DNA of 64,000 nucleotides from Phycisphaerales bacterium (lineage in GTDB: Bacteria > Planctomycetota > Phycisphaerae > SM23-33 > FEN-1343), in assembly GCA_003171335.1 (NCBI GenBank), contig PMYD01000101.1, positions 6,952 through 70,951 of the forward strand. The letters run 5' to 3'. The notes under the pieces are model-generated. The model searched no databases and was not told the origin of the DNA. It saw only the letters and a program-made list of their open reading frames with translations. The position numbers were made by a program, and so were the translations under genes. This document shows positions 4,148 to 61,809 of this stretch, in pieces. Each line of letters opens with the position of its first letter. Positions within the stretch are counted from its first letter, which is position 1.

Positions 4148-4252
4148 ACCGGTACGCTAGGGGCGCCCATGAGGGCTGAGACGGCCGGCGGCCGGTACCC
4201 TTGGAACCTGATCAGCAACCCGGAACGGGGCTGCGTAGGGAAGCGACCGAAT
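4148..4252 (+). promoter_or_regulatory. TPP riboswitch (THI element) aptamer
   Basis: The conserved THI-box elements are present in order: GGGGCGCCC, GGCUGAGA, a P3 hairpin, UACCC, GAACCUGAUC and GCGUAGGGAA. Confidence 0.85.
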
Positions 4253-4296
4253 GTGACACGTTGCCCGCCGGCCATGCGGCCGGCGGCGAGTTGGAA

Positions 4297-4371: not shown

Positions 4372-4911
4372 ATGAGAATCGACGTGGTGCGTGAGCCCGA
4401 TGTGCCGCCGGCCATCGATGCGGCCATCATGCGCCTCCAGCAGCGGGCGTTCCCCAAGACCGAGTCCTTCGCCCGGTCGCGGTACTACACGCATACAGCG
4501 CGGCAGGGCGATTTTCGCGTGCTGGCGTGGCTGGACGAGGCGCCGGTGGGGCAGGTTGTGGTCATGTGGGCCAACGCTCGCGCGGGCGCGCAAAATCTCC
4601 GCCTGGCGGGGCTGGGCAATGTGTGCTCCGACCCCGATCATCGCAAGGAGCACGCGGCCTCGGCCTGCATCGAGCGGGCGCTGGAACTGGCCCGCCAGGA
4701 GGATGGCGATGGCGCGCTACTGTTTTGCGGGGCCAGCCTGGAAAAATTTTACGCCCGGTTCGGCTTTGAGATTGTGTCAAACGAGGTCTTCTTCACGCAC
4801 CCCGACGGCACCATCTTCCGCCGCAACCACCGTGACATCCGCATGGGCCTGATGCTGAAGGACCAGCCCTGGCCGGCGGGGGATCTGTATCTGGATACGG
4901 AAGACTTTTGA
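4372..4911 (+). CDS. GNAT family N-acetyltransferase
   Basis: The protein has the acetyl-CoA binding fold pattern (RLAGLGNV...HRKEHAASACIERALELA) and ends in FYARFGFE. Confidence 0.75.
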   Translation: MRIDVVREPDVPPAIDAAIMRLQQRAFPKTESFARSRYYTHTARQGDFRVLAWLDEAPVGQVVVMWANARAGAQNLRLAGLGNVCSDPDHRKEHAASACIERALELARQEDGDGALLFCGASLEKFYARFGFEIVSNEVFFTHPDGTIFRRNHRDIRMGLMLKDQPWPAGDLYLDTEDF

Positions 4912-4913
4912 GG

Positions 4914-5042
4914 GATTGCAAATTGCCAATTGCAAATTGCCAATTAAACGGCCGGAAGAACGCGCCGCTTGGAACGCGGGTCTTTCCCGCCGTTTCCGGC
5001 CGTTTCTTCAATTTGCAATTTGCAATTTGCAATTCGCAATCC
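4914..5042. repeat. ~130-bp hairpin element with heptad-repeat arms (ATTGCAA/ATTGCCA x4 opposite AATTTGC x4) and an inner GC-rich palindrome (AAACGGCCGGAA...TTCCGGCCGTTT)
   Basis: This is an inverted-repeat structure read directly from the sequence. A second family member lies at 34778-34889. Confidence 0.8.
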
Positions 5043-5083
5043 GAAGGGGCAAGACCTGGCTCGGCGGACCGGACCCCCATCAA

Positions 5084-5796
5084 ATGAAGATCTCCCACCC
5101 CATCGCGATCAAAACCCTCAGCCTGCTGGCGGCGTGGGTGCTGCGCCTGTGGCTGGGGACGCTGGAGTTCCGCTTCGCCCTGGATGATCCTGGCCTCAAC
5201 CCGGCACACCTGCGGCGGCGGGGGCTGTACATGTTCTGGCACGAGGCGCTGCTGATGCCCGCCTACACGCACAGCCACCGGGGCTTTACGATTCTTACGA
5301 GTACGCATCGCGATGGCGAACTGATCACGCAGATCGTCCGCATGCTGCGCGGCCGCGCCGTTCGCGGCTCCAGCACGCGCGGCGGTGCGGCGGCCGTCCT
5401 GGGTATGATGCGCCGAGCCCGGACGCAGCACCTGGCCATCACGCCGGATGGCCCGCGCGGGCCGCGAAGGCAGATGCAGGCCGGCGCGATTTACCTGGCC
5501 AGCCGCGGGCGACTGCCGCTCATCCCGCTGGGCATCTCGGTCGCAAGAGCCTGGCGGGTAAGAAGCTGGGACCGCACGATTTTGCCGCGGCCGGGCAGCG
5601 AGTGCTGCTATGTGCTGGGCCGGGCCATCGAGGTGCCGCACGAGGCCGACCGCCAGGAGCTGGAGCGATACCGCCAGCTCGCCCAGCAGGCCCTGGATGA
5701 TGCGCAGGAGCGGGCCGAGCGGCTGGCCGCCGGGCAGGGATCCGAGCCGCGACTGTGGACGTTAGCCCAAGTGAACGCTCCGGCAGGAGAGAAGTC

Positions 5797-5800
<4 letters not shown>
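5084..5800 (+). CDS. DUF374 / lysophospholipid-acyltransferase-like protein
   Basis: The protein matches the DUF374 pattern ([31 protein letters not shown]...ITPDGPRGP). Its stop overlaps the thiC start. Confidence 0.6.
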
Positions 5801-7131
<1,331 letters not shown>

Positions 7132-8894: not shown

Positions 8895-8943
8895 TTTGAA
8901 AGGTGCTTCGCGGCGCACCAGAGGCAATGCCTTGACGAAGAAA

Positions 8944-8988
8944 CCGATTAACGGATCAACCGATTAACGAATTAACGATTTAACGGAC
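8944..8988. repeat. Tandem TTAACG-containing repeats (CCGATTAACGGAT...CGATTAACGAATTAACGATTTAACGG) immediately upstream of the GH27 gene
   Basis: The repeats can be read directly. The 13-mer CCGATTAACGGAT recurs at 63868-63880. Confidence 0.6.
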
Positions 8989-9000
8989 CAACCACCCCCC

Positions 9001-10290
9001 ATGAGTAACCGCCATATTGCCCCCACGCCTCCTTTGGGCTGGAACAGTTACGACAGCTACGGCTGCGCCATCAACGAGCAGGAATTCCGCGCCACGGTCG
9101 ATGTCATGGCCGAAAAGCTGCTGCCGGCCGGGTATCGCTACGCCTGCATCGACGGCATGTGGGCCTTCGAGCCCGAGGCCATGGGGCCGACCATGTGGAA
9201 GCCCGAGGCGCAGCCGCACATGGATGCGTACGGCCGGCTGGTCCCTTCGCCGCGGCGATTCCCCTCGGCCAAGGAAGGCTCCTTCGCCCCGCTGGCGGAC
9301 TATGTGCACAGCAAGGGCCTGAAGTTCGGCATCCACGTGATGCGCGGGGTGCCGCGCAAGGCCGTCGATCGCCGCCTGCCTGTGCTGGGCACGCGTTTCA
9401 CCACCGAGGACATCGCCGACAAAAACAGCACCTCCGACTGGGACAACACCATGTACGGCCTGAACACGCGCCACGCCGGCGCGCAGGCGTGCTACGACTC
9501 CATCCTGGCCCTGTACGCCCAGTGGGGCGTGGATTTCATCAAGGCCGACGACATGGGCACGCCCTACGCGGCGGCGGAGATCGAGCTTTTCGCCAGCGCC
9601 GTGGAGCGATGCGGCCGACCGATCGTGCTGAGCCTGTCCCCCGGCGTGTGGCTGGATGACATCCTGCGCGCCTGGCCGCACGTGGCCCAGCACTGCCAGA
9701 TGTGGCGGATCACCGCGGACATGTGGGATAGCTGGCCGTGCATCAAGCAGCTCTTCCCGCTGTGCGCCGCCTGGTCCGGCGCCATCGGCGAAAACTCCTG
9801 GCCGGATGCGGACATGCTGCCCTACGGCCGGCTGAGCCTCAAATCGGCCAAGACGCCCGGCGGGCGGCCCACGCGGCTGACGAACGATGAGATTCGCAGC
9901 CATTTCAGCCTGCTGTGCATGTGCCGCAGCCCGCTCCTGATGGGCGGCGACCTGCTGAGCCTGGATGACTTCACGCTGTCGGTGCTGACGGATGCGGAGG
10001 TCCTGGCGGTCAATCAGCACAGCCGGCAAAACCGCATGGTGTTCAGCAACGTCAGCGGGCTGGAGGGCTGGACGGCCCGCATGGACGATGGCGACGTCGT
10101 CGTGGCCTTCTTCAACATGGCCGACACGCCGCAGGAATACACGTCGAAACTGCGCTGGCTGCGGATCGAAGAGGGCCATTACGCCGTGCGCGACCTGTGG
10201 GAGAAGAAAGACCTGCCGCCGATCGAGGAGAGGATTTCAGGGATGTTGGCGCCGCACGCGTGCGTGATGTGTCGATTGAAGAAGATTTAA
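9001..10290 (+). CDS. Glycoside hydrolase family 27-like (alpha-galactosidase/alpha-N-acetylgalactosaminidase-like)
   Basis: The protein reads TPPLGWNSYD near the N-terminus and WGVDFIKAD in the catalytic region, and has the TIM-barrel pattern of GH27. Confidence 0.7.
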   Translation: MSNRHIAPTPPLGWNSYDSYGCAINEQEFRATVDVMAEKLLPAGYRYACIDGMWAFEPEAMGPTMWKPEAQPHMDAYGRLVPSPRRFPSAKEGSFAPLADYVHSKGLKFGIHVMRGVPRKAVDRRLPVLGTRFTTEDIADKNSTSDWDNTMYGLNTRHAGAQACYDSILALYAQWGVDFIKADDMGTPYAAAEIELFASAVERCGRPIVLSLSPGVWLDDILRAWPHVAQHCQMWRITADMWDSWPCIKQLFPLCAAWSGAIGENSWPDADMLPYGRLSLKSAKTPGGRPTRLTNDEIRSHFSLLCMCRSPLLMGGDLLSLDDFTLSVLTDAEVLAVNQHSRQNRMVFSNVSGLEGWTARMDDGDVVVAFFNMADTPQEYTSKLRWLRIEEGHYAVRDLWEKKDLPPIEERISGMLAPHACVMCRLKKI

Positions 10291-11858: not shown

Positions 11859-11901
11859 GTCAATTAGTCAATTGGTCAATTAGTCACCGTGTCAATTAGA
11901 C
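11859..11901. repeat. Tandem octamer repeats GTCAATT(A/G)G x4
   Basis: The repeats can be read directly. They lie in the convergent intergenic region. Confidence 0.6.
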
Positions 11902-13157: not shown

Positions 13158-13277
13158 CCCTGGCTCTTTTTCGGCGGCTCAGCCACCGGACTTCCTTGCA
13201 CGTATCGGATGCGTGGCTGAAGGTTAATAAGCGAATTTCGCCTGCGGCGGGAGCTTTGTCAAGGCCACCGTGCGCAA

Positions 13278-13359
13278 TTGAAATCATTTCAAGTGTAAAC
13301 CGTTTACACTTGCAGCTTACAGCTTACCCAGCTTACCACTTCCAACTTAGTTGGAAGTG
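13278..13359. promoter_or_regulatory. Cluster of palindromes upstream of the lipoprotein gene
   Basis: The cluster contains TTGAAATcATTTCAA, GTGTAAACcGTTTACAC, (AGCTTAC)x3 and the 23-bp perfect palindrome CACTTCCAACTTaGTTGGAAGTG. Confidence 0.5.
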
Positions 13360-13416
13360 AATTGCTCTAAGCGTTACATTCTTCGCCCTAATGATGACGA
13401 ACGTAACACTTAAACC

Positions 13417-14367
13417 CTAACACAGGCTGACCACCAGTGATTGAAGCGTGGCTTTGCCATCGCGGCCGGTCTTGATCGCCAGGTCGGCCCGGATGAGCTT
13501 GCGGAAGTCCTCGGCGATCTGGTCGAGGCTCTTGCGTGCCAGCAGCCGCCGCATGAGCGACTGGCCGGGGCCGAAGACTTTGGCCTCCTGGAAGGCCTGG
13601 TATTCGCCGCGGCCGGCCGCGATGAGGTGCTTCGCTTTGAGCACCCGCCGCAGGTGCCAGCCGAGCATGCCCAGCAGGCGGTATTCCTCGCCGCTCTGCA
13701 CCAGCACCATATCCAGGATCTCCAGGGCCTTTCGGGCGTTGCCTTCCATCAGGGCATCGGTCAGCGTGAATGGATTGACGGCGGCGGTGGCCACGACGAC
13801 CGCGCTGACATCCTCAGCCGTGATGACCGCGCGGCCCAGGGTGTAGAGGACAAGTTTTTCCAGTTCGGACGCCGCCCGCGCGCGATCAAGCCCCAGCCAC
13901 TCCACCATCAATTGCACGGCCGCCGGCTCGATTTGCCGCCCAGATTCCTTGGCGCGGTCGCGGATGAACTGGCTAATGGCGCCGGCGTCGGGCGTGCGGC
14001 ATTCCAGGGCCTGGCCGATTTTGGCCACGATCTTGTACAGCCGCTCGCCGGTGCGAAATGTCTTGAGCATCAGGATCAGCGTGCCCGAGGGGGCGGGGGC
14101 TTCCAGGTATTTCTCCAGCGACAGGCGGTGGCTGGAGACGAAGCTGTCGGCGGGGTCCACGATGACCACCCGGCGGTCGCCCAGGAACGGCAGCGTCCGC
14201 AGGTCATCCAGCACGGCGGCCAGCTCTGGCTCGGCGTCGTATCGGCTGACGCAGAGCTGCGCATCGGCCGCTCCCAGAACCTCGGCGGTCACCGCCAGGC
14301 GGTTCTGCTCGCGCAGAAACTCGTCCGGGCCGTAGATGACGTAAATCGGTTTGGGCTGGCCGCTCAT
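13417..14367 (-). CDS. holA: DNA polymerase III delta subunit
   Basis: It has the characteristic N-terminus (PIYVIYGPDEFL) and a full-length delta-subunit pattern. Confidence 0.8.
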   Translation of the reverse strand: MSGQPKPIYVIYGPDEFLREQNRLAVTAEVLGAADAQLCVSRYDAEPELAAVLDDLRTLPFLGDRRVVIVDPADSFVSSHRLSLEKYLEAPAPSGTLILMLKTFRTGERLYKIVAKIGQALECRTPDAGAISQFIRDRAKESGRQIEPAAVQLMVEWLGLDRARAASELEKLVLYTLGRAVITAEDVSAVVVATAAVNPFTLTDALMEGNARKALEILDMVLVQSGEEYRLLGMLGWHLRRVLKAKHLIAAGRGEYQAFQEAKVFGPGQSLMRRLLARKSLDQIAEDFRKLIRADLAIKTGRDGKATLQSLVVSLC

Positions 14368-14407
14368 GGCCGGTCATTTTGACACCGGCGATAGGGCGTG
14401 TAAAGGA

Positions 14408-14509
14408 GGCTATAGGTTTTAGGCTGTAGGCTATAGGAACTGCTGGAAAAGAAAAGTCATCCACACCTTCCGACCGTTTCTACAGCCTACAGTCTAAAGC
14501 CTACAGCCT
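14408..14509. repeat. Inverted-repeat element GGCTATAGGTTTTAGGCTGTAGGCTATAGG...CTACAGCCTACAGTCTAAAGCCTACAGCC
   Basis: The inverted repeats can be read directly. A homologous element lies at 59328-59469. Confidence 0.75.
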
Positions 14510-15877
14510 CTTCTCTCCTCGCTTTTCGTGAAGGACCTGCATGGCCGCTACCCGGCGGTCCAGCACGTGCCAGAGCAGGGCGAAGAAGAGCGTGCCGAAG
14601 ATCGCGGCCATGGCGTTTTCGAGGAAAACGGCCAGGCTGCCGCCAACAGGGCCGGCCAGCGCCTTGGCGGCTTCGAGCAGCGCAGCGCACCCAACCGCCA
14701 GGGCCGCGCCCGCCAGCATGCGGTACCGCAGCCGCCAGGGCCGGCGCAGGCTGATGTAGAAGGTCAAGGTCGCACTGACGGCGGCGGCCATGGCCCAGCG
14801 CCGCAGCGTGGCGTAGTAGGCCCAGGCGTGCTCATGGCTGTACAGGCCCCACAGCGGCCAGCGGGTCTGCCCGCCTGAACTGCTCCAGGACAGGCACGAC
14901 AGCATGAAGATCAGCGATGTGGCGCAAAACAGCGCGCTGGCCGGCAGCGTAAGAGGCTGGCGATGCAGCGCCGGGGCCAGTGCGGCCGCGCCGAAACTCG
15001 CCCCCGCCGCCACCAGCACGGCCGCCAGGCTGACCGCCTCGGCCGGCACGAAGAGCCGGAGCAGCTCAATTGCCAGTGCCAGCATCGTCACCGCCGTTGC
15101 ACAGACGAAGGCGCCGCGCCGGCTGATTTCCTTGGGGCCCGTGGCCATCGTCAACAGCAGCGTCAACGCCGCAAAGCTGCCCGCCCGGCGCAGCACCCAC
15201 TGATGCCAGGGCGCCAGCGCCAAGCCGGCCGGGATGGACCATTTGACGCCATGCCACTGCACCGCCGCCACGGCCCAGGCGGGCCTGACCCGCCAGGCGA
15301 TGGCCGCCAGCAGCGCTGTCGCCAGCAGCACCGCGGCCAGGAGGGCGTGGCGATTCCGCAGGTAGAGCGCCAGGCGCCGGGCGACCCGGAGGGCGGGTTT
15401 GATCGCGATGGCGGCGAGAATCGCCCCCAGCAGGCCCCCGGCCGTGTTCATGGTGACATCCTGTAGGTCCGAGACCCGTCCGACGACAAAAAGCTGCATC
15501 GTCTCGATCGCCACGCTCACGCCAAACGCCATCGCGACGGCCAGCGGAACAAGCAGCCAGCTTCGCCGCTGGCCGTGCCAGGCGGCCACGACCAGCGCGC
15601 CCAGCGGGATAAAGAGCAGCACATTCTTCTGGCCATCGCTTGTGTGGATCGCCCCGAGACATTCCCGCATCGACGGCGCCAGCGCCTCGCGCCATTGCTG
15701 GCGAACGCGCGCGGGGGTGAAGTTCAGTGTCAGCGGCATCCAGCCGGCATATAACAGCAGTGCGGCGTAGGCCAGCAGGGCCAGCTTGCAGGTCTTGCGA
15801 TGCATGAGCGCACTTTCTTCCCCGCCGGCATCCCTGCGGCGATAATCCGCGCGACTAATGAGCAACTCCGGCCGCAC
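14501..15877 (-). CDS. VanZ-family polytopic membrane protein
   Basis: It has many TM helices and a VanZ-like N-terminal motif (ETMQLFVVGRVSDLQDVTMNTAGG). Confidence 0.5.
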   Translation of the reverse strand: MRPELLISRADYRRRDAGGEESALMHRKTCKLALLAYAALLLYAGWMPLTLNFTPARVRQQWREALAPSMRECLGAIHTSDGQKNVLLFIPLGALVVAAWHGQRRSWLLVPLAVAMAFGVSVAIETMQLFVVGRVSDLQDVTMNTAGGLLGAILAAIAIKPALRVARRLALYLRNRHALLAAVLLATALLAAIAWRVRPAWAVAAVQWHGVKWSIPAGLALAPWHQWVLRRAGSFAALTLLLTMATGPKEISRRGAFVCATAVTMLALAIELLRLFVPAEAVSLAAVLVAAGASFGAAALAPALHRQPLTLPASALFCATSLIFMLSCLSWSSSGGQTRWPLWGLYSHEHAWAYYATLRRWAMAAAVSATLTFYISLRRPWRLRYRMLAGAALAVGCAALLEAAKALAGPVGGSLAVFLENAMAAIFGTLFFALLWHVLDRRVAAMQVLHEKRGEKRL

Positions 15878-16033
15878 GGCGGCTATTTCCCTGCCTCTAA
15901 GGACAATACACTACGGCGTTTACCCCGGCAAGTGATGCATCTTGACCCACAGGATTGATGTCTCCCTTCCGGCAAGCCTGCCTTTCGGGAGCCGTGAGCG
16001 ACATTTGTTTCTGGCATGGCCTATGTTGTTGTC

Positions 16034-16222
16034 GTGTAACAGGCCCCGGCTTCAGCCGGGGTGATAGATACGCTGCAGGCACATGAGCCCGTTTCAACGG
16101 GCTTGTATTTGTTGGCTTTAGCCATAGCAGATGCCTCAAGGCACGACCCCAAGCCCGTTGAAACGGGCTGAATCTCTGGGCAGACCGCTTAACCCCGGCT
16201 GAAGCCGGGGCCTGTTACACCA
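16034..16222. repeat. ~190-bp symmetric element: GTGTAACAGG + hairpin CCCCGGCTtcaGCCGGGG + hairpin GCCCGTTtcaACGGGC, then the mirror-image copies
   Basis: The nested inverted repeats can be read directly. They lie in the divergent promoter region upstream of the ThyA-like operon. Confidence 0.7.
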
Positions 16223-16369
16223 CAAGACAACCTCGCCAGAAAATAAGGTCGCTCACCGGGGCCTGTCGGCTCATCGCCTCTGTAGACCGCCAGCCGCCTT
16301 TTGACTATATTGCGGACAACGCGCGAGGTTCCGGCGCCAGACAAGACTCCCGGGTGCGGAAGGAAGGGC

Positions 16370-19044: not shown

Positions 19045-20423
19045 GCCCCGCGCCTGCCCAAATCACCCTGGGCCAGTGGGACGAGCGCTACGCCGCCTTG
19101 CGGGCCGAGGGCCTTCGGGAGCCCTCCTACGGCGGGCCGCTGTCGCGGCATCTGGCCGATGGCGACCGCCGGCTGAGCTGCCTTCGTTTCGACAATTCGC
19201 CGGCGGCGCTGCGGCTGTGGAATTTCCTGCTGAGCGAGGAGGACCGGCTGTTCGCCGCCCGCCGAGAGGGTAAGACCATCATCGGCACGATGAAGGACCT
19301 CGGTACAGTCCCCATTATGGCCTACGCCCTGGAAGACACCGTCGCCTTCTACCCCGACGGCGCCTGGTGGCAGCCCTGCGTGATGGAGCTGAGCGACGGC
19401 CTGCTGGCGCGGGCCGACGCGATGGGGATCGACGAGTCCTTCTGCCCCGTGCGGGCCATGCTGGGGGCCTTTGAAACCGGCGAGCATTTTCCCGCCCCTG
19501 ACCTGCTGACGTGCAGTGTCGGGGCGACCTGCGATGATTTTTCCGCCATCGCGCAGCGGCTTTCCGCCACGGGTTTTCCCATCCTCTGGTGGGAGATTCC
19601 GCCGCGCCGGCCGTGCGACCCGGGCGAAGCGGCCATCCGCCTGCCGGGCGGCCGGCGGGTGTCACGCAGCCAGGTGGCATTCGTGACCGGCCAGATGCAG
19701 CATCTGGCCTGGGCCATCGGCCAAACCTGCGGGAAGCGCCTGCGGCGCCGGCATCTGGCCCAGAGCATTCACCAGGCCAATCGCGTGCGCGGGTTGCTGG
19801 GCGAGCTGCGCGAGGAGGCGTATCGCGCGGCGGCCGCGCCGCTGGGGGCGATGGAGATGCTGGTGGCCGAGATGCTGGCGATCCATTATTGTTCGGATCG
19901 TGACGAAACAGTGGCCGTGCTGGAGGATTTGCTGGCGGAGGTCCGCCGCCGCGTGGCCGCCGGGACAGGCGTTCTGGAGGCCGCCGCCGCGCGGGTGTAC
20001 TGGGTGAACCCCGTGGCCGACCTGCGGGCGATGAACCTGCTGGAAGAGTGCGGCGGCCGCGTGTGTGGCACGGATTACATGTTCGGCCACGCGCTGGCGA
20101 GAATTCCGACGAACGTGCCGCCGCTGGAGGCTTTGGCGCGCATGGCACTGGCCGACCCGATGGTTGGCCCGGCCGGGCAGCGGGCCGAGGATATCTGCGC
20201 CGACATGGCCGCCGCGGGCGCCGAGGCGGCGGTGATCTCGCGCATCCCCGGCGCGAGCCACTGCGCCACTGAGGGAGCGGTCATCGCCGAGGAAATTCGC
20301 GGGCGACTGGCGCTGCCCGTCGTAGAAATCGAAGTGCCGCCGGTGATCGACGCCGTGATGGCCAGCCTGAAGACGCGGCTATCGGCACTGGTGGAGCGGG
20401 TGAAGGAGAGGCGCGAGCGATGA
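19041..20423 (+). CDS. 2-hydroxyacyl-CoA dehydratase / benzoyl-CoA reductase family subunit (HgdB/BcrC-like)
   Basis: The GKTIIGTMKDLGTVP...FCPVRAM family pattern is present. The start overlaps the upstream stop. Confidence 0.75.
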   Translation: MSPAPAQITLGQWDERYAALRAEGLREPSYGGPLSRHLADGDRRLSCLRFDNSPAALRLWNFLLSEEDRLFAARREGKTIIGTMKDLGTVPIMAYALEDTVAFYPDGAWWQPCVMELSDGLLARADAMGIDESFCPVRAMLGAFETGEHFPAPDLLTCSVGATCDDFSAIAQRLSATGFPILWWEIPPRRPCDPGEAAIRLPGGRRVSRSQVAFVTGQMQHLAWAIGQTCGKRLRRRHLAQSIHQANRVRGLLGELREEAYRAAAAPLGAMEMLVAEMLAIHYCSDRDETVAVLEDLLAEVRRRVAAGTGVLEAAAARVYWVNPVADLRAMNLLEECGGRVCGTDYMFGHALARIPTNVPPLEALARMALADPMVGPAGQRAEDICADMAAAGAEAAVISRIPGASHCATEGAVIAEEIRGRLALPVVEIEVPPVIDAVMASLKTRLSALVERVKERRER

Positions 20424-21214
20424 TGTTTGCGGGTGTGGATGCCGGATCGCGGGCGATCAAGATCGTCCTTTTGGGGACGGAGGGCCGCATCGCCGCGCGC
20501 GGCCAGGTCGATCAAGCCGTGCGGCAGGGCGAACTGGCCGAGTCGCTGTACGAGGCGCTGCTGGACGAGGCCGGCGCAGCGCGCAAAGACGTCGCCGGCG
20601 TCGTGGCCACCGGCTATGCCCGCCAGGGCGTGACCTTTGCCACGCGGACGGTGACGGAAATCACCTGCCACGCGCGCGGCGTGCATCACCTGCTGCCTGA
20701 GGCGCGCTGCGTGGTGGAAGTGGGGGGGCAGGACTCCAAGCTGCTGCACCTGGAGGCCGATGGCGCCGTCCGCGATTTTTCCATGAATGATCGTTGCGCC
20801 GCCGGCACCGGCCGCTTTCTGGAGATGCTGGCCGCTCGCCTGGAGGTGCCGCTGGCGGACCTCGGCGCCCTGGCGAGCCAGAGCCAGGCGGCCGCGCCCA
20901 TCAGCAGCATGTGCGTGGTCTTCGCCGAGACGGAGATCATCGGTCTTTTGGCCGCCGGGCGAAGCTGCCCGGACATCGTCGCCGGCGTGCAGTCGGCGAT
21001 TGCCGCACGCGTGGCCGCCATGGCCGGCCGCACGCTGGCCGGCCCGGTCGTCTTTACCGGCGGGGTGGCGCTGGTGGGGGGCATGGCGGGCGCGATGGAG
21101 ACCACGCTCAAGTGTGCCGTGACCATCGCCCCCGACCCCCAGTTCACCGGCGCGCTGGGTGCGGCGATTCTGGCCCGCGCGGCAGCCCGCCGAGCTGAGG
21201 GGGGCAAGCCGTGA
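20420..21214 (+). CDS. CoA-substrate-specific enzyme activase (HgdC/BadF/BcrAD ATPase family)
   Basis: It has the ASKHA-fold activase pattern (MFAGVDAGSRAIKIVLL...CAAGTGRFLE). Confidence 0.85.
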   Translation: MMFAGVDAGSRAIKIVLLGTEGRIAARGQVDQAVRQGELAESLYEALLDEAGAARKDVAGVVATGYARQGVTFATRTVTEITCHARGVHHLLPEARCVVEVGGQDSKLLHLEADGAVRDFSMNDRCAAGTGRFLEMLAARLEVPLADLGALASQSQAAAPISSMCVVFAETEIIGLLAAGRSCPDIVAGVQSAIAARVAAMAGRTLAGPVVFTGGVALVGGMAGAMETTLKCAVTIAPDPQFTGALGAAILARAAARRAEGGKP

Positions 21215-21843: not shown

Positions 21844-21864
21844 AAAGCCTGACAAACAAAAACC

Positions 21865-21954
21865 GGGTGCCGTGACTGCGTCGTTTGCAGCCACGCCGAA
21901 TGGGATGATCCCTTCCCAGACGCGTGGTTGCACAAAGACGCAACCACGGCACCC
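21865..21954. repeat. ~90-bp double-hairpin element with GGGTGCCGTG terminal inverted repeats
   Basis: The structure is GGGTGCCGTGACTGCG..GCAGCCACG ... CGTGGTTGCAcaaagacGCAACCACGGCACCC. A homologous element lies at 61457-61546. Confidence 0.7.
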
Positions 21955-22017
21955 GACCTAGAGTCTACAGCTCTCGTCTTCTTGGGGACACACCTTGTGT
22001 CCCGATTATTTGCTCCC

Positions 22018-24562: not shown

Positions 24563-27424
24563 TTACAGGGCGGGCACCGTAATGGTGCTCGCGTTGATGG
24601 TCACCGAACCGTCTGAGTTTGAACCGCCCAGAAGCCGGCCCTCCACCACGGACCCGGTGTTAACCGTGATCGTCACTGCGGCAAGGATATTGCCCATGAA
24701 GATCGTGGTCGTATCGAGGGTCGCTGAAGTCCCGACCTGCCAGAAGATATTGCCGGCCTTGGCGCCGCCGGCCAGGACCACCTGGGCGCCGGGCCCCGTG
24801 GTGAGTGTGGACCCCATTTTGAAGATGAAGATCGCATTGGGGTCGCCCTGGGCGTCAAGGGTCACGATGTTGCCGGGGCCTGCCCCGGAGATCAATACCG
24901 AGGTCGAGTTCGTGTATAGGCCGGGGGTGAAGGTCAGCCCGCCCATGTTGCCGGGCAGACTTACTGAACTAACTGAACGGCTTACCGCATCGTTATACGC
25001 GGCCAACAGATCGGCCTGGGCCGTTATGATCGCCTGATCATCGACGTGGATGGTCCCGTTGACCTGCGCCGGCGGGATTCCCTGTGCACTTCCCGGGTTC
25101 AGCCCGACATCTCCGTTGATCTGGGTAGGACCAGTGCTAGTGATCGAAGCGGTAGCCATCACCGCGAAGGCGCCGGCCGACCCAAGGTTGATGGTCGCTT
25201 GCTCCATCTGCGTTCCGGTCGTAAATGTCCACACCTTGTCGCTTGCCAGCGGATTGCCGGCCAGGTCCTTTACCCCGCTGATCCCGCCGGCGATCGTAGC
25301 GGTAAATGTGGTGTCGGTGGCGAGATTGCTCGATGGTGTAAAGGTTGCAATCTTGCTTAGTGCATCATAGTTCACCGTCCCCGTCACAGGGGTATTGCCG
25401 GGCCCTGTCACCGTGAAGTTAGCGGTCGTGATGGTCAGCGGGTCCATCGACTCGCTGAAGGTCCCGGCGACCGTCTTATTGATGGCCACGTCGGTTTGGA
25501 GATCGTCGGGGTTGGTGGAGGTCACTGTGGGGGCGGTGGCGTCCGAGGTCGCCCCAGTTGTAAACGTCCAGGTGAAGTTGCTGGCCAGTGGGTTCCCCGC
25601 CAGGTCCTTGGCCCCGGTGGTTACGGTGGCCGTAAACGTGGTGTCGGGCGCGAGGGCGCTTGTGGGCGTGAAGGCCATTGTGGCGCCCACGCAAGTCACA
25701 GTGCCGATAACAGGAACCAGGCCGGGCGCTGTCACCGTCACGCTCGCTGCGGTGATCGTCAGCGGGTCCATGGCTTCGCTGAAGGTCGCCGCGACCTTCT
25801 GGTTCAGAGCGACGTCCGTTGCGTTATCTGCTGGGTCCGTGGAAAGCACTGTGGGGACGGTGGCGTCCGAAGTCGCCCCGGTCATGAAGCTCCAGACGAA
25901 GTTGTCAGCCAGTGGATTCCCAGCCAGGTCCTCGGCGCCGGTGGTGATCGTCACGGTGAAGAGGGTATTGGGCGCGAGGGTGCTTGTGGGCGTGAAGGCC
26001 ATTGTGGCGCCCACGCAAGTCACAGTCCCTATAACAGGAACCAAGCCGGGTCCTGTCACCGTCACGCTCGCTGCGGTGATCGTCAGCGGGTCCATCGCCT
26101 CGCTGAAGATGGCCGCGATCTTCTTATTGCGGGCCACTCCCGTGGCGCCGTTCAGAGGGTCTGTGGAACTCACTGTGGGGGCGGTGATGTCCGTGGTCTC
26201 CCCGGTAGTAAACGTCCAGGTGAAGTTGCTGGCCAAGGCGTTGCCCGCCAAGTCCTCGGCCCCGGTGGTTACGGTGGCCGTAAAGGTGGTGTCGGTCGCA
26301 AGGCTGCTGGTGGGTGTGAACGTGGCTGTGGTGCCGACGTACGTCACCGTGCCTATCACCGGCGTGGACTCCGGCCCGGTCACCGTGAAGCTCGTCGTGG
26401 TGATGGTCAGCGGGTCCATCGGCTCGCTGAAGGTCGCCGCGATCTTCTGGTTCAGAGCGACGTCCGTTGCATTACTTGCTGGGGCCGTGAAACTCACCGT
26501 GGGGGCGGTGGTATCCGGGATCGGGGTGTTCGATTCGAAATTCACGATCCGAAATTGCGAGTTCCTGATGTACGTGCTGGCGTCGAAGTTGAGGAGTGTG
26601 TCGTACCCCCGCCCGCCGTCGAAACGCACTCTATTGGAAAATACAGCGCGGGTGCCGGTCTGGCCGGTCACGCCGAACTGGAGAGTGTCGTCGCCGGCGC
26701 CCAACCAGATCCATACAGGCCCGTAGAACAGGGTGGGCGGGCTTAGGGGGCCGCCGTGGGATCCGATCTGAACGATGTCCGCACCCTGTCCGGTATACAG
26801 TCGCACCGCGCCGTGGAAGATCGAGTTGTCGACCGTGAAGATATCGGACCACCTCCCACCGACGATTTTGGTGTTCCGCTGGACTTCCACCGATCGCAGG
26901 GCGACATTCTCCACGCCAGAGCCAGGCCCGATCCTCAGATCCTTGCCGACCGTGGTATTGGCGATCGTGGTGGTGGTACTATTGTGGATATTAAGACTTC
27001 TCGCGACCTGCACGTTGTTGAGCGTGAGGATATTGGCACCCTTCTGGCCGTCGACCGAAACGTTGCCCGGAAGGCTCAGGCTGCTCATGGTCACGCTGTC
27101 GGCCCCGGCACCCATTCGGATGTCGACGCCGCGCGTTACGCCGCTCAGGATGACCGGATTGGCCTGGTTGTTGATGGCTGTGCCGCTGGCCCCGGAGATG
27201 CGCACCTGGTCGGCGTTCAGCCCGCTTTGATCCAGGACAATGACGTTCGCCGCGGCGTCACCCCGGATATTCAGGTTTCCATGCATTACCGAAGCAAGCA
27301 CGGTCCCGGATAGCAATACCCGGGGCTCGAGGGCTTCAATGGACGGACACGCCGGAGCCTTCTCGCGTTCGATGTCATGCTTTGAAGATATGCTTCGCCC
27401 CAGATGTCGCAGTGCGCGTTTCAT
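24563..27424 (-). CDS. Large secreted adhesin-like protein: N-terminal beta-helix region, 5-6 tandem Ig-like (Big_5/SbsA-like) domains and a C-terminal ice-binding-like (DUF3494) domain
   Basis: The signal peptide is MKRALRHLG... The ~100-aa repeats read TAPTV..TDP..ATDVA.N..I...FSE.MDP.TIT. The C-terminus reads INLGSAGAFAVMA...NGDVGLNPG. The full ORF extends to 27493 from a TTG start. Confidence 0.8.
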   Translation of the reverse strand: MKRALRHLGRSISSKHDIEREKAPACPSIEALEPRVLLSGTVLASVMHGNLNIRGDAAANVIVLDQSGLNADQVRISGASGTAINNQANPVILSGVTRGVDIRMGAGADSVTMSSLSLPGNVSVDGQKGANILTLNNVQVARSLNIHNSTTTTIANTTVGKDLRIGPGSGVENVALRSVEVQRNTKIVGGRWSDIFTVDNSIFHGAVRLYTGQGADIVQIGSHGGPLSPPTLFYGPVWIWLGAGDDTLQFGVTGQTGTRAVFSNRVRFDGGRGYDTLLNFDASTYIRNSQFRIVNFESNTPIPDTTAPTVSFTAPASNATDVALNQKIAATFSEPMDPLTITTTSFTVTGPESTPVIGTVTYVGTTATFTPTSSLATDTTFTATVTTGAEDLAGNALASNFTWTFTTGETTDITAPTVSSTDPLNGATGVARNKKIAAIFSEAMDPLTITAASVTVTGPGLVPVIGTVTCVGATMAFTPTSTLAPNTLFTVTITTGAEDLAGNPLADNFVWSFMTGATSDATVPTVLSTDPADNATDVALNQKVAATFSEAMDPLTITAASVTVTAPGLVPVIGTVTCVGATMAFTPTSALAPDTTFTATVTTGAKDLAGNPLASNFTWTFTTGATSDATAPTVTSTNPDDLQTDVAINKTVAGTFSESMDPLTITTANFTVTGPGNTPVTGTVNYDALSKIATFTPSSNLATDTTFTATIAGGISGVKDLAGNPLASDKVWTFTTGTQMEQATINLGSAGAFAVMATASITSTGPTQINGDVGLNPGSAQGIPPAQVNGTIHVDDQAIITAQADLLAAYNDAVSRSVSSVSLPGNMGGLTFTPGLYTNSTSVLISGAGPGNIVTLDAQGDPNAIFIFKMGSTLTTGPGAQVVLAGGAKAGNIFWQVGTSATLDTTTIFMGNILAAVTITVNTGSVVEGRLLGGSNSDGSVTINASTITVPAL

Positions 27425-27496
27425 GGGAAACTCCTTTAAAAGGTTATAAGGAACAACACTTTGGGCTTCCCCACGAACGGTGGGCGCGCCCAAAGT

Positions 27497-34775: not shown

Positions 34776-34777
34776 AG

Positions 34778-34889
34778 GAATTTCAAGTTGCAGATTTCAA
34801 ATTTCAAATTTGAAGAAAGAACCAGGCTCTCTCTGCCGAGCGGAGCTGGTTCCCCAAATTTGCAATCTGCAATTGGCAATTTGCAATCC
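34778..34889. repeat. Second heptad-repeat hairpin element (ATTTCAA/TTGCAAT arms, inner GAACCAG..CTGGTTC palindrome) between flgC and fliE
   Basis: It can be read directly and is the same family as 4914-5042. Confidence 0.75.
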
Positions 34890-34897
34890 CCCGGGGT

Positions 34898-40050: not shown

Positions 40051-40214
40051 AGGCTAGAGGCGGCGAGGAACGGCCGCAGAAGAACAGGCGTGCAGTTGAG
40101 TCGAGAGAAACAGGAAAGGCGAGGTTTGAAAATGACTGAGGCGCAGAGAAAAGCGGGACATTCCTCCTCTCCCGCCGTACCTGCAGCCTCCAGTCTCCAG
40201 CCTCCAGCCTAGCC

Positions 40215-48645: not shown

Positions 48646-49089
48646 ATGACCGAAAAAACAGATTCCCCCATCGCATCGGCTGCCGTTGCGGCCGTCGCCA
48701 ATGCGCCCTCCACTCTCTCTTCCGATGGCGCCTCTGCCGCCCCCGCTGATTCCGCCGGTGCGGCCGCCGCGCCGTCGGAGGGCGCCGGTCTGGAGATACC
48801 CGAAGTCAAGGTCGCCGATGCGGCGACCGGCGGCGACGCGGCCGGCGATAAAGCGCTGGACATGCTGGGCGACGTGGAACTGGACGTGAAGGTCGAGCTG
48901 GGCCGTTGCCAGATGCTCGTGGGCGATGTGTTGCGCCTGCAGGAAGGCGACGTCGTCGAGCTGGACAAACTCGCCGGCGATCCGGTGGACGTGTACGTGA
49001 ACGAACGGTTGGTGGCGCGCGGCGAGGTGCTCGTGGTGAACGAGAACTTCTGCGTGCGCGTTAACCAGATTGTGGCGAAGGAAGATTGA
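48646..49089 (+). CDS. fliN: Flagellar motor switch protein FliN
   Basis: It has the C-terminal SpoA/FliN domain ([24 protein letters not shown]). Confidence 0.9.
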
Positions 49090-49262
49090 GGCTGCAGGCT
49101 GCAGGCTTGAGGCGTGTAGTTGGCCGTTCCCTTCAATAACACTGCAGTGCCCGGTCCGAAAGAACGCAAAAAAGAGGCGGCGATTTCCCAGCCTCAAACC
49201 TGTTTCAGCCCCGGTGGGCCCCGCTCTCAAGCTCGCCGCGGCAGGTTTCGGAGAAGGACGAG

Positions 49263-59326: not shown

Positions 59327-59327
59327 G

Positions 59328-59469
59328 GGGGCTATAGGCTTTAGGCTGTAGGCTATAGGCTGTAGTCTCGAAGTCGAAGGCTTGACTCGAAAACTCGGCG
59401 GCCTCGGTCGATATGAAATAGACTCACAAGCGGATCCCTACAGCCTAAAGCCTAGAGCCCACAGCCTAT
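59328..59469. repeat. Second TAGGCTGTAGGCTATAGG inverted-repeat element (GGGCTATAGGCTTTAGGCTGTAGGCTATAGGCTGTAG ... CTACAGCCTAAAGCCTAGAGCCCACAGCCTAT)
   Basis: It can be read directly and fills the fliA-downstream intergenic region exactly. Confidence 0.75.
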
Positions 59470-61456: not shown

Positions 61457-61546
61457 AAACTGAAACGGGTGCCGTGGTTGCGTTCTTCTGCAACCACGCG
61501 TTTGGGAAGATTCCTCCCCCTACGCGTGGCTGCAAACGGATGTAGC
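61457..61546. repeat. Second GGGTGCCGTG double-hairpin element
   Basis: The sequence is GGGTGCCGTGGTTGCGttcttcTGCAACCACGCG ... CGCGTGGCTGCAaacggatgTAGCCACGGAACCC. It is ~80% identical to 21865-21954. Confidence 0.7.
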
Positions 61547-61809
61547 CACGGAACCCGGCCATCTTGGTTGGGTTCTCTGCGGCGCGTGCGCCAATGGGTC
61601 ACAGCGAAGCTGGCGATATTTCACGAGTGGCTCGCCCTGGGGGAGGCCCAAACATGACCTTCATGCAAGAACCTCCAAGGCACCCGGATCGTTTTTTTAT
61701 TGCGAGCGTCCTGTAATATTCAGCCGCGTTAAACGACTGACTGTGAGAACGCGAGTGCAGGGAACTAAGCAAGCGACCTTGGCCGATGGCTGAAATGGGA
61801 GGCAGAGCG

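Follow-up and report, generated by a model that had tools for sequence, protein, structure and literature searches.

Tandem arrays of 7-nucleotide (7-nt) units are the commonest periodic repeat in prokaryotic intergenic DNA and form a class that is explicitly left unexplained (SPADE, bioRxiv 10.1101/309039). The over-representation of heptamers and the idea that these microsatellites originate by slippage go back to Mrazek 2007, as that work is cited in PMC4692102, and arrays of the class are known from Xanthomonas, Nostoc, Calothrix, Beggiatoaceae and Chloroflexus (PMC4692102, PMC4679880, PMC6749651). Here, we describe a member from the Planctomycetota, located in a 64,000-nt stretch of a Phycisphaerales bacterium genome (contig PMYD01000101.1; the whole stretch is referred to below as the window). 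The element, locus 1, is an intergenic hairpin at window positions 4912-5042 whose two arms are heptamer arrays facing each other. Its assignment to the tandem-heptamer class, in the inverted-pair form, is secure. It is also well supported that such heptamer-repeat palindromes make up a very large family, which fills short spacers between co-directional genes in Planctomycetota and is also found in some other phyla.

The closest described relatives are the heptamers of Xanthomonas (GGGAATC) and Nostoc (GGGGAYT) (Rehm et al. 2015, PMC4692102). Like locus 1, these are intergenic, are built from about four or more 7-nt units and show an excess of the period; in addition, their sites are kept between related species while length varies, as in the planctomycete elements. 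In Xanthomonas, some arrays stand alone and others form convergent inverted pairs, 70-75 per genome, and the convergent pairs match the planctomycete polarity described below (PMC4692102). However, the planctomycete unit is either AT-rich (TTGCAAA) or GGCTRTA and, unlike the Xanthomonas and Nostoc units, is unable to form G-quadruplexes. The planctomycete pairs also enclose a unique GC-rich core, and the host phylum differs. As far as we found, three features reported here have not been described for the Xanthomonas and Nostoc heptamers: the bias towards co-directional spacers, a general rule of polarity and copies in frame within genes. The preliminary description of locus 1 had presented it as novel, which as a kind it is not, since tandem intergenic heptamers were already known (bioRxiv 10.1101/309039), as were convergent pairs in Xanthomonas (PMC4692102). 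Nothing specific on the TTGCAAA unit or on planctomycete heptamer repeats was found in the literature. The short tandemly repeated repetitive (STRR) sequences of Calothrix, as they are cited in PMC4692102, and the TAACTGA arrays (MacGregor 2015, PMC4679880) are likewise tandem intergenic heptamers, often located a few nt from a start codon. TAACTGA occurs in Beggiatoaceae, Cyanobacteria and Bacteroidetes (PMC4679880), and is thus, like TTGCAAA, one unit spread across distant phyla. In contrast, the TAACTGA arrays of Maribeggiatoa form 169 direct sets and a single indirect one (PMC4679880), and their unit is rich in stop codons, whereas TTGCAAA contains none.

The element had also been likened to the repetitive extragenic palindromic (REP), bacterial interspersed mosaic element (BIME) and enterobacterial repetitive intergenic consensus (ERIC) types of enterobacteria. 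By analogy this stands: REPs, BIMEs and REPINs are also extragenic palindromes, often arranged as inverted doublets around a variable spacer, and REPs lie mostly downstream of coding regions, are transcribed, can stabilise the upstream mRNA and are in some cases found in replication and repair genes (PMC3733652). In its details it does not. A REP is a conserved imperfect palindrome of 20-40 nt with a GTAG/CGTC tag (PMC3733652), whereas the planctomycete arms are tandem arrays of variable length that lack a conserved core. The TTGCAAA-like (Type A) elements carry no such tag, and the GGCTRTA-like (Type B) elements contain GTAG solely as part of each unit. In addition, a Pfam scan covering 40 of the approximately 56 predicted genes of the window revealed neither a transposase nor a REP-associated tyrosine transposase (RAYT) of the IS200/IS605 type.

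Locus 1 consists of an (ATTGCMA)x4.4 arm, a unique GC-rich core and a (CAATTYG)x4.6 arm, all read on the forward strand. The left, A-rich 5' arm (4912-4945; GGGATTGCAAATTGCCAATTGCAAATTGCCAATT) opens with a GGG clamp followed by 4.4 units of ATTGCAA/ATTGCCA; at 4915-4945, Tandem Repeats Finder (TRF) reports 4.4 copies at period 7 and 2.2 copies at period 14, the latter at 100% match. The core (4946-5005) holds a perfect 12-nt inverted repeat, AAACGGCCGGAA (4946-4957) and TTCCGGCCGTTT (4994-5005), around small apical hairpins. The right, T-rich 3' arm (5006-5042) starts with CTT, continues with CAATTTG units (x4.6, 5009-5040 by TRF) and ends in a CC clamp. An inverted-repeat search pairs 4913-4948 with 5007-5042, arms of 36 nt that are 89% complementary. 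As RNA, the element folds at -68.9 kcal/mol, compared to -43.6 +/- 4.0 kcal/mol for shuffled sequences (z score of -6.3; 0/200 shuffles equal it), and as DNA at -48.3 kcal/mol (z -7.9). The predicted structure is a single long imperfect stem of about 50 bp; the core alone reaches a z of -2.0. Sequence, TRF and folding hence agree with the initially noted hairpin with 7-bp-periodic arms and an inner perfect palindrome. Several features that mark heptameric simple sequence repeats are present: head-to-tail 7-nt units, a period-7 excess, intergenic placement, sites that are kept while units vary, and occurrence singly or in convergent pairs. With up to two mismatches allowed, 1.03 matches to TTGCAAWTTGCAA are expected in the window; 13 occur, and 12 of these lie within locus 1 and a second copy, locus 2. 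Around locus 1, Rfam (E up to 10) gave chance-level matches only (E >= 0.47), and across the whole window at gathering score it gave no match except a thiamine pyrophosphate (TPP) riboswitch.

This riboswitch (4149-4258, forward strand; RF00059, 57.3 bits, above the gathering score) heads the unit in which locus 1 lies. It is followed on the same strand by a GNAT acetyltransferase gene (4372-4911; PF13527, E 6e-11), the hairpin, a gene for a DUF374 or lysophospholipid-acyltransferase-like protein (5084-5800; PF04028, E 2e-22) and thiC (5755-7131; PF01964, E 6e-175), which overlaps the DUF374 open reading frame (ORF). The left arm begins 1 nt, and the hairpin 1-2 nt, past the GNAT stop codon TGA (4909-4911), and the right arm stops 41 nt upstream of the DUF374 start codon. 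The gene order is the same in four genomes (the window, L127, L129 and L130), which together with the riboswitch makes it plausible that the element lies inside an operon, as had been proposed. The TPP match upstream of GNAT is the sole TPP match found, and a simple scan revealed no promoter-like site between the hairpin and DUF374. RNA polymerase would need to read through locus 1, because the only riboswitch found is upstream of it and thiC, overlapping DUF374, is downstream. A TPP riboswitch located approximately 1.5 kb 5' of thiC, with GNAT and DUF374 in between, is in itself an unusual TPP-regulon gene set.

The unit has a practical consequence for annotation. TTGCAAA contains zero stop codons in all six frames, so ORFs cross its arrays, and the longest DUF374 ORF (4916-5800, forward strand) starts inside the hairpin with the spurious sequence MQIANCKLPIK... 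The true start is most likely the ATG at 5084, judging by homology to the orthologs. Gene callers should be expected to place start codons too far upstream at such arrays.

Copies of the element are not limited to locus 1. Across the window there are four hairpins made of paired heptad arrays, which represent two types of unit, and further arrays that stand alone or are half decayed. A self-match scan found nine arrays of period 7 and between zero and two for every other period from 4 to 12, and every array falls in a gap of a gene map based on the G+C content of third codon positions (GC3). The second copy that had been reported between flgC (PF06429) and fliE (PF02049) does exist and follows the same plan (locus 2, Type A, 34777-34890, forward strand; right arm ATTTGCAATCTGCAATTGGCAATTTGCAAT). 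Its left arm is degenerate, its arms of 41 nt are 76% complementary, and its fold alone is not significant (z -1.7). The stretches around flgC match ENA contig ERZ19970544 c_000000007400 (191 kb) and two JGI contigs exactly. Because the locus 2 region, hairpin included, is base-identical in three independent assemblies, it is not an assembly artefact; there is no copy-number difference between these same-species contigs at locus 2. A family of two loci proved too narrow, however, as Type B repeats the architecture with another heptad, (GGCTRTA)n ... (TAYAGCC)n, at two further sites. One, (AGGCTRT)n ... (AYAGCCT)n at 14403-14512 (z -7.7), occupies the gap that separates holA from a VanZ-like gene, both of them encoded on the minus strand, and contains the stop codon (TAG) of the upstream gene. 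The other (59327-59469, forward strand; z -3.9) separates a sigma-70-family (FliA-like) gene from a hypothetical gene, with its right arm abutting the downstream ATG at 59468. A pyrimidine-rich CCTCCAG-type array (40179-40212, forward strand) ends 2 nt 5' of the fliJ start codon and is the 3' arm of a decayed pair, whose 5' arm survives as 12 nt after the fliI stop (40051-40063). A solo purine-rich AGGCTGC array (49086-49117, forward strand) starts at the fliN stop codon. The heptads of this genome consist of a 6-nt palindrome or near-palindrome plus one base (TTGCAA+A, CTGCAG+G, CTATAG+G).

To place these copies in a wider frame, genomes were scanned, one per GTDB species, with the query TTGCAAWTTGCAAWTTGCAA, i.e. 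(TTGCAAW)x3. At least 118 stretches matched, the majority from metagenome-assembled genomes (MAGs) of Planctomycetota. Among the matches listed are Pirellulales, Gemmatales, Thermoguttaceae, Planctomycetaceae and Phycisphaerae from this phylum, and Anaerolineae, Acidobacteriota/Blastocatellia, Gemmatimonadota, Bacteroidota and more from elsewhere. Heptad arrays thus recur both in the window and in GTDB genomes, and the family proposed in the preliminary description is decisively upheld by copies in more than a hundred other genome stretches. In 849 kb of sequence around the TTGCAAA arrays of other genomes, period 7 accounts for 311 arrays and any other period for 34 at most. Dozens of further heptads occur in this set, including AACTGAT, a rotation of TAACTGA. 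An inverted partner lies within 250 nt of 106/320 arrays and a direct partner near 48, at a median spacer of approximately 38 nt. Viral contigs contributed 28 matches, the AT-rich ones being chance palindromes. Several GC-rich IMG/VR contigs classed as viral (L136, L143, L151, L154 and L156) carry 7-12 heptad arrays each; either phages acquire host repeats or these contigs are host DNA.

The most regular property of the pairs is their polarity. Neighbouring TTGCAAA-type arrays are arranged as (TTGCAAA)n...(TTTGCAA)n in 52 cases and in the opposite order in four, three of which have zero spacer; direct pairs were seen six times. The purine-rich arm is thus 5' and the pyrimidine-rich arm 3', a rule that by symmetry is valid on both strands. 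For other heptads, a manual tally found the purine-rich arm 5' in 13 of 14 inverted pairs. Hairpin stability alone fails to explain this, because both arm orders would fold equally well. The copies also have common ends, G-rich at 5' and C-rich at 3': GG(R)GGA-ATTGCAA ... TTGCAAT-TCC(Y)CC. Arms have a median length of approximately 42 nt, and left and right lengths are uncorrelated (rho 0.15). Together with the lack of pair-specific complementarity given below, this suggests that the arms are independent samples of one array family, not mutual copies. Snap-back copying of one arm from the other is unsupported for the same two reasons. No common sequence emerged from an all-against-all blastn comparison of 41 cores, except for array carry-over in L004. 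Cores in the window are structured (z -2.0 and -2.9). Only 38% are structured in the larger set (median z -0.55), and the notion of a terminator core in every pair was rejected on that account. Coding sequence usually resumes 10-40 nt away on either side of a paired element. Where the context could be determined, by a crude gene call from GC3 and open frames, 38/43 pairs lie between co-directional genes, 4/43 between divergent and 1/43 between convergent genes, compared to a background of ~67%, ~18% and ~15%, respectively, for the same loci. A stop codon lies 0-4 nt from the stem base in the lineage of the window. Such adjacency was rejected as a general rule, the distances being widely spread in the larger set.

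Comparison of orthologous junctions reveals long retention of sites and rewriting of units. In three related genomes (L127, L129 and L130), DUF374 is 74-78% identical to the window protein. The GNAT-DUF374 junction carries a heptad element in 4/4 genomes, with an intact hairpin in three, and the element starts within a few bases of the GNAT stop at all orthologous loci. The right arms read CAATTTG (window), CAATTGG/CAATTTG (L127), CAATCCG (L129) and a mixed array (L130). In this CAATNNG unit, C, A, A, T and G do not vary, and the pair of bases in the middle has been homogenised in each genome separately (TT, TG alternating with TT, CC, or mixed). From the sequences, the pattern is evidently one of concerted evolution, as slippage predicts. 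A search of metagenomes for DUF374 added five loci at 40-53% identity; the three inspected (L122-L124, 47-53%) have a different upstream region without GNAT and without the element. As a separate observation, the DUF374 ortholog of L129 contains an in-frame TGA (about 9990-10000) where the window has GGG CTG, and the called gene is N-terminally truncated (188 aa). The truncated gene and a decayed left arm share this locus.

Other junctions behave similarly. The element between the sigma-factor gene and the hypothetical gene is present in 2/2 genomes, with fewer units in L127 (8473-8620; three versus five). The flgC-fliE site is occupied in 3/3 genomes (intact in L159, left arm only in L160) and the fliI-fliJ site in 2/2, by an intact pair in L159 (15769-15934) and a decayed one in the window. 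Upstream of holA, both genomes compared have a hairpin, with unrelated arms (GGGATRCA-type in L129). Aligned with their L159 counterparts, the start-proximal pyrimidine-rich arms of the window are identical at ~30/31 (flgC-fliE) and ~29/31 (fliI-fliJ) positions by manual counts from the alignments, the whole-arm figures being 0.79 and 0.83. At these two junctions, flanking coding DNA is 54-80% identical, and left arms and cores are 55-64% identical. Compared for a possible inversion of the element, the cores of the window and L127 are marginally similar whichever way round they are read. The arrays turn over by gain, loss and homogenisation of units, as these alignments show and as expected from replication slippage. 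Accordingly, the unit found at a given site takes a different form in each genome. The same comparisons show gains or losses of whole elements between relatives. An inverted pair of nonamer arrays in L127 (flhB-flhA, 2330-2560), (CACAAAGAN)n ... (NTCTTTGTG)n, keeps the purine-to-pyrimidine polarity. In addition, L129 contains two hairpin copies (678-800 and 20386-20533) with near-identical 33-nt arms (AATTAGCAGGGATACAGGGGATGCAAGGGATAA / TTATCCCCTGTATCCCCTGCATCCCTGCTA) and partly similar cores. They surfaced as chance miRNA-precursor matches in Rfam, and one of them lies upstream of holA.

Copies also occur inside coding sequence. In a Planctomycetaceae MAG contig (CAVWEY010000002.1; L040, 616-3699), three paired elements and a solo array lie in frame within a DnaE-like ORF of 1027 codons. 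The ORF aligns over its length with Escherichia coli polymerase III alpha (5fku_A, E 2e-113), and one insert corresponds to ~33 extra residues between two aligned blocks. The arrays are translated as ...NCKLQI-x8-NLQFAICNLQ..., and another in-frame solo array was found in L032.

What the element does was weighed between five readings. We tentatively favour an RNA-level role, which is conceivable though somewhat short of probable: a slippage-maintained intercistronic hairpin acting post-transcriptionally, by analogy with known mRNA structures. Long stems adjacent to stop codons can block 3' exonucleases, be cut by RNase III or stall the terminating ribosome, as seen for the malE-malF REP, the RNase III sites of phage T7 and REPs located within 15 nt of a stop codon. 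The likeness to the malE-malF and T7 hairpins is functional only, the common feature being a long stem between cistrons near the upstream stop codon. Locus 1 would be transcribed within the riboswitch-GNAT-DUF374-thiC unit, with RNA polymerase passing through. The transcript would form the ~50-bp hairpin from the GNAT stop to 41 nt before the DUF374 start, and its stem base would draw the upstream stop codon near the downstream start region. As a barrier to 3' exonucleases and/or an RNase III-type processing site, the hairpin may set the relative stability and translation of the two cistrons. Three observations favour this role: the elements strongly prefer short spacers between co-directional genes and are nearly missing between convergent ones, their sites have long been retained, and locus 1 needs to be read through. 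The holA site, where the arm sequence has been replaced but the hairpin kept, is counted on the same side. Of the roles suggested in the preliminary description (mRNA stabiliser, attenuator or protein-binding platform), binding by one sequence-specific protein is hard to square with so many different units, and the gene context argues against a terminator. Several results weigh against the RNA-level role. Only 3/9 elements fold better as the sense than as the antisense strand, and no bias pointing to sense-strand selection via G-U pairs was seen. Complementarity within a pair (0.795) does not exceed that to arms of unrelated loci (0.786), solo arrays point either way relative to the neighbouring genes, without preference, and the gene contexts depend on the crude call mentioned above. 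The left arm of L129 has decayed with loss of the hairpin (-33 versus about -68 kcal/mol), and L160 keeps a left arm without its right partner at flgC-fliE. A TTGCAAA hairpin occupies flhA-flhF in L127, whereas the window junction is 25 nt long and empty; the flhB-flhA gap of the window (22 nt) likewise lacks the nonamer hairpin. Finally, an intercistronic role is impossible for the copies of L040, as they lie in frame within the DnaE-like ORF. Almost as likely as the RNA-level role, and not probable in itself, is a non-adaptive self-renewing repeat, in which heptamer microsatellites arise by polymerase slippage, opposed arrays flank a replication stall point and the hairpin is tolerated junk. 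Such a by-product would account for arrays that are homogenised internally and differ in unit number between relatives, for the many unrelated heptads in the same genomes, for arms that behave as independent samples, and for the lack of bias in sense strand and solo orientation. Elements that are present or absent between relatives, decaying arms, in-frame copies of a unit that is stop-free in six frames and GC-rich viral contigs with many arrays fit it as well. It is less easily reconciled with sites that are kept across genomes whose proteins are only 63-78% identical, with start-proximal arms better conserved than adjacent coding DNA, or with the enrichment in short spacers between co-directional genes and the scarcity between convergent genes, a place in which junk ought to do no harm. 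Nor is a polarity of 52 to 4 predicted by slippage alone.

Three further readings are less likely. The elements could be small mobile elements of the foldback, MITE (miniature transposable element with inverted repeats) or REPIN kind, with the arrays as terminal inverted repeats and the transposase encoded elsewhere in the genome, which we consider unlikely. Eukaryotic foldback (FB) transposons have long inverted arms of short tandem repeats, with variable arm length and a variable middle. The bacterial elements share this arm build and variable middle; FB transposons are eukaryotic, far larger and in part encode a transposase, and mobility of the bacterial elements is only putative. Filled and empty sites between relatives, the common terminal signature and a fixed polarity, as terminal repeats would give, suit mobility, and so does the two-copy hairpin of L129. 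Moreover, the arms of locus 1 are closer to the non-orthologous flhA-flhF element of L127 than to their own ortholog, including the alternation of ATTGCAA and ATTGCCA. The in-frame copies recall Rickettsia palindromic elements (RPEs) and the intragenic REPs of replication and repair genes (PMC3733652, where RPEs are mentioned). The shared trait with RPEs is in-frame palindromic repeats; the planctomycete arms differ in being microsatellite-like, and the window copies are all intergenic. RPEs are 100-150 bp long, have a conserved sequence and can sit in frame in genes and be translated. A MITE with a conserved core was rejected, as the 41 cores share no sequence. Mobility is further opposed by the lack of a transposase or RAYT among the window genes scanned, by arm lengths and unit variants that differ freely between copies and by unit changes at orthologous sites that resemble evolution in place; the flhA-flhF sites with and without the element have diverged so far that neither the ends nor a target-site duplication are definable. 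Quite improbable is a bidirectional terminator or attenuator, which would present a purine/A-rich arm, a GC-rich stem and a pyrimidine/U-rich arm whichever way it is read, each 7-nt step of the 3' arm giving a weak RNA-DNA hybrid beside the stem as it grows. The polarity rule is what a two-way terminator needs, the GC-rich inner stem of locus 1 is followed by UUUCUUCAAUUUG, and co-directional placement suits an internal attenuator. However, locus 1 lacks the features of an intrinsic terminator: no T run (U tract) follows the full stem, a simple terminator scan makes no call, and its position between the riboswitch and thiC means that it must be read through. Two-way terminators are expected between convergent genes, but only one of the 43 pairs lies there; arms of the G-rich/C-rich types lack a U tract, and well-structured cores are the minority noted above. 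Very improbable, lastly, is a binding platform on DNA or RNA for a nucleoid protein, a flagellar regulator or an S1/cold-shock-type single-strand binder on the start-proximal arm. It agrees with the high conservation of the start-proximal arms at fliE and fliJ, independent of the other arm, and with MacGregor's proposal for TAACTGA arrays just upstream of start codons (PMC4679880). TTGCA/TGGCA also resemble sigma-54 promoter halves, and a sigma-54 activator lies upstream of flgB. The many different units per genome, the spread of elements beyond one regulon and the solo arrays without preferred orientation argue the other way. Sigma-54 promoter mimicry by TGGCAA/TTGCAA as such was rejected, since the 7-nt GG/GC spacing misfits -24/-12. 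The polarity rule is explained by none of the five readings and is the most interesting lead. A possible, if doubtful, account is that the palindromes are made or kept by a directional process that runs with the purine-rich strand 5' to 3' towards the centre, as in head-to-head telomere-like arrays or foldback arms, rather than being passive microsatellites. Their middle would on this account be unrelated DNA resembling that of the host, and copies could come to lie in frame within genes.

If the polarity holds genome-wide and across phyla, it would offer a first mechanistic handle on the dominance of 7-nt units in prokaryotic intergenic DNA. A dedicated activity would then be indicated, be it directional addition of repeats, a foldback-type element that has no transposase or stall-site slippage specific to the nascent strand, or else an RNA function that works both ways and depends on a pyrimidine-rich 3' arm. 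The regularities on which such work can build are a phylum-wide TTGCAAA family, near-absolute pair polarity, a preference for short co-directional spacers and retention of sites with rewriting of units, and the window offers a clean, well-placed example of tandem heptamers in a riboswitch-controlled operon and a flagellar gene cluster. If the hairpins shape operon mRNA, they would represent a widespread, unannotated layer of expression control in a phylum that has received little study; should they be junk, they would be strikingly structured, self-renewing DNA that is able to enter proteins in frame.

Besides the heptad hairpins, the window contains other repeats. A 259-nt gap downstream of holA (13240-13420) harbours a CTTACAG-type heptad run (13304-13337) and several small perfect hairpins. 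Intergenic arrays of period 8/16, of the ATTAACGA and GTCAATTA types, are located at 8942-8993 and 11859-11899, the former ending 7 nt 5' of the start of an alpha-galactosidase gene. In a 743-nt gap, a 39-nt unit is repeated 2.8 times (2123-2270), and every unit is a hairpin (CACTTCATCTCCGAGATGAAGTG). A divergent intergenic region of 423 nt holds a nested palindrome (16029-16225) with outer arms of 34 nt (97% complementary) and inner arms of 20 nt (100%). Two hairpins with the common arm CGGGTGCCGTG(nn)TGCG lie directly downstream of gene ends, those of a HAD hydrolase and argG (21864-21955 and 61466-61557), and may constitute a separate REP-like family. Finally, a large protein encoded on the minus strand (24563-27493) carries an ice-binding-like domain at its C terminus and four Big_5 Ig-like domains, for which a 324-nt tandem repeat (25397-26511) codes.

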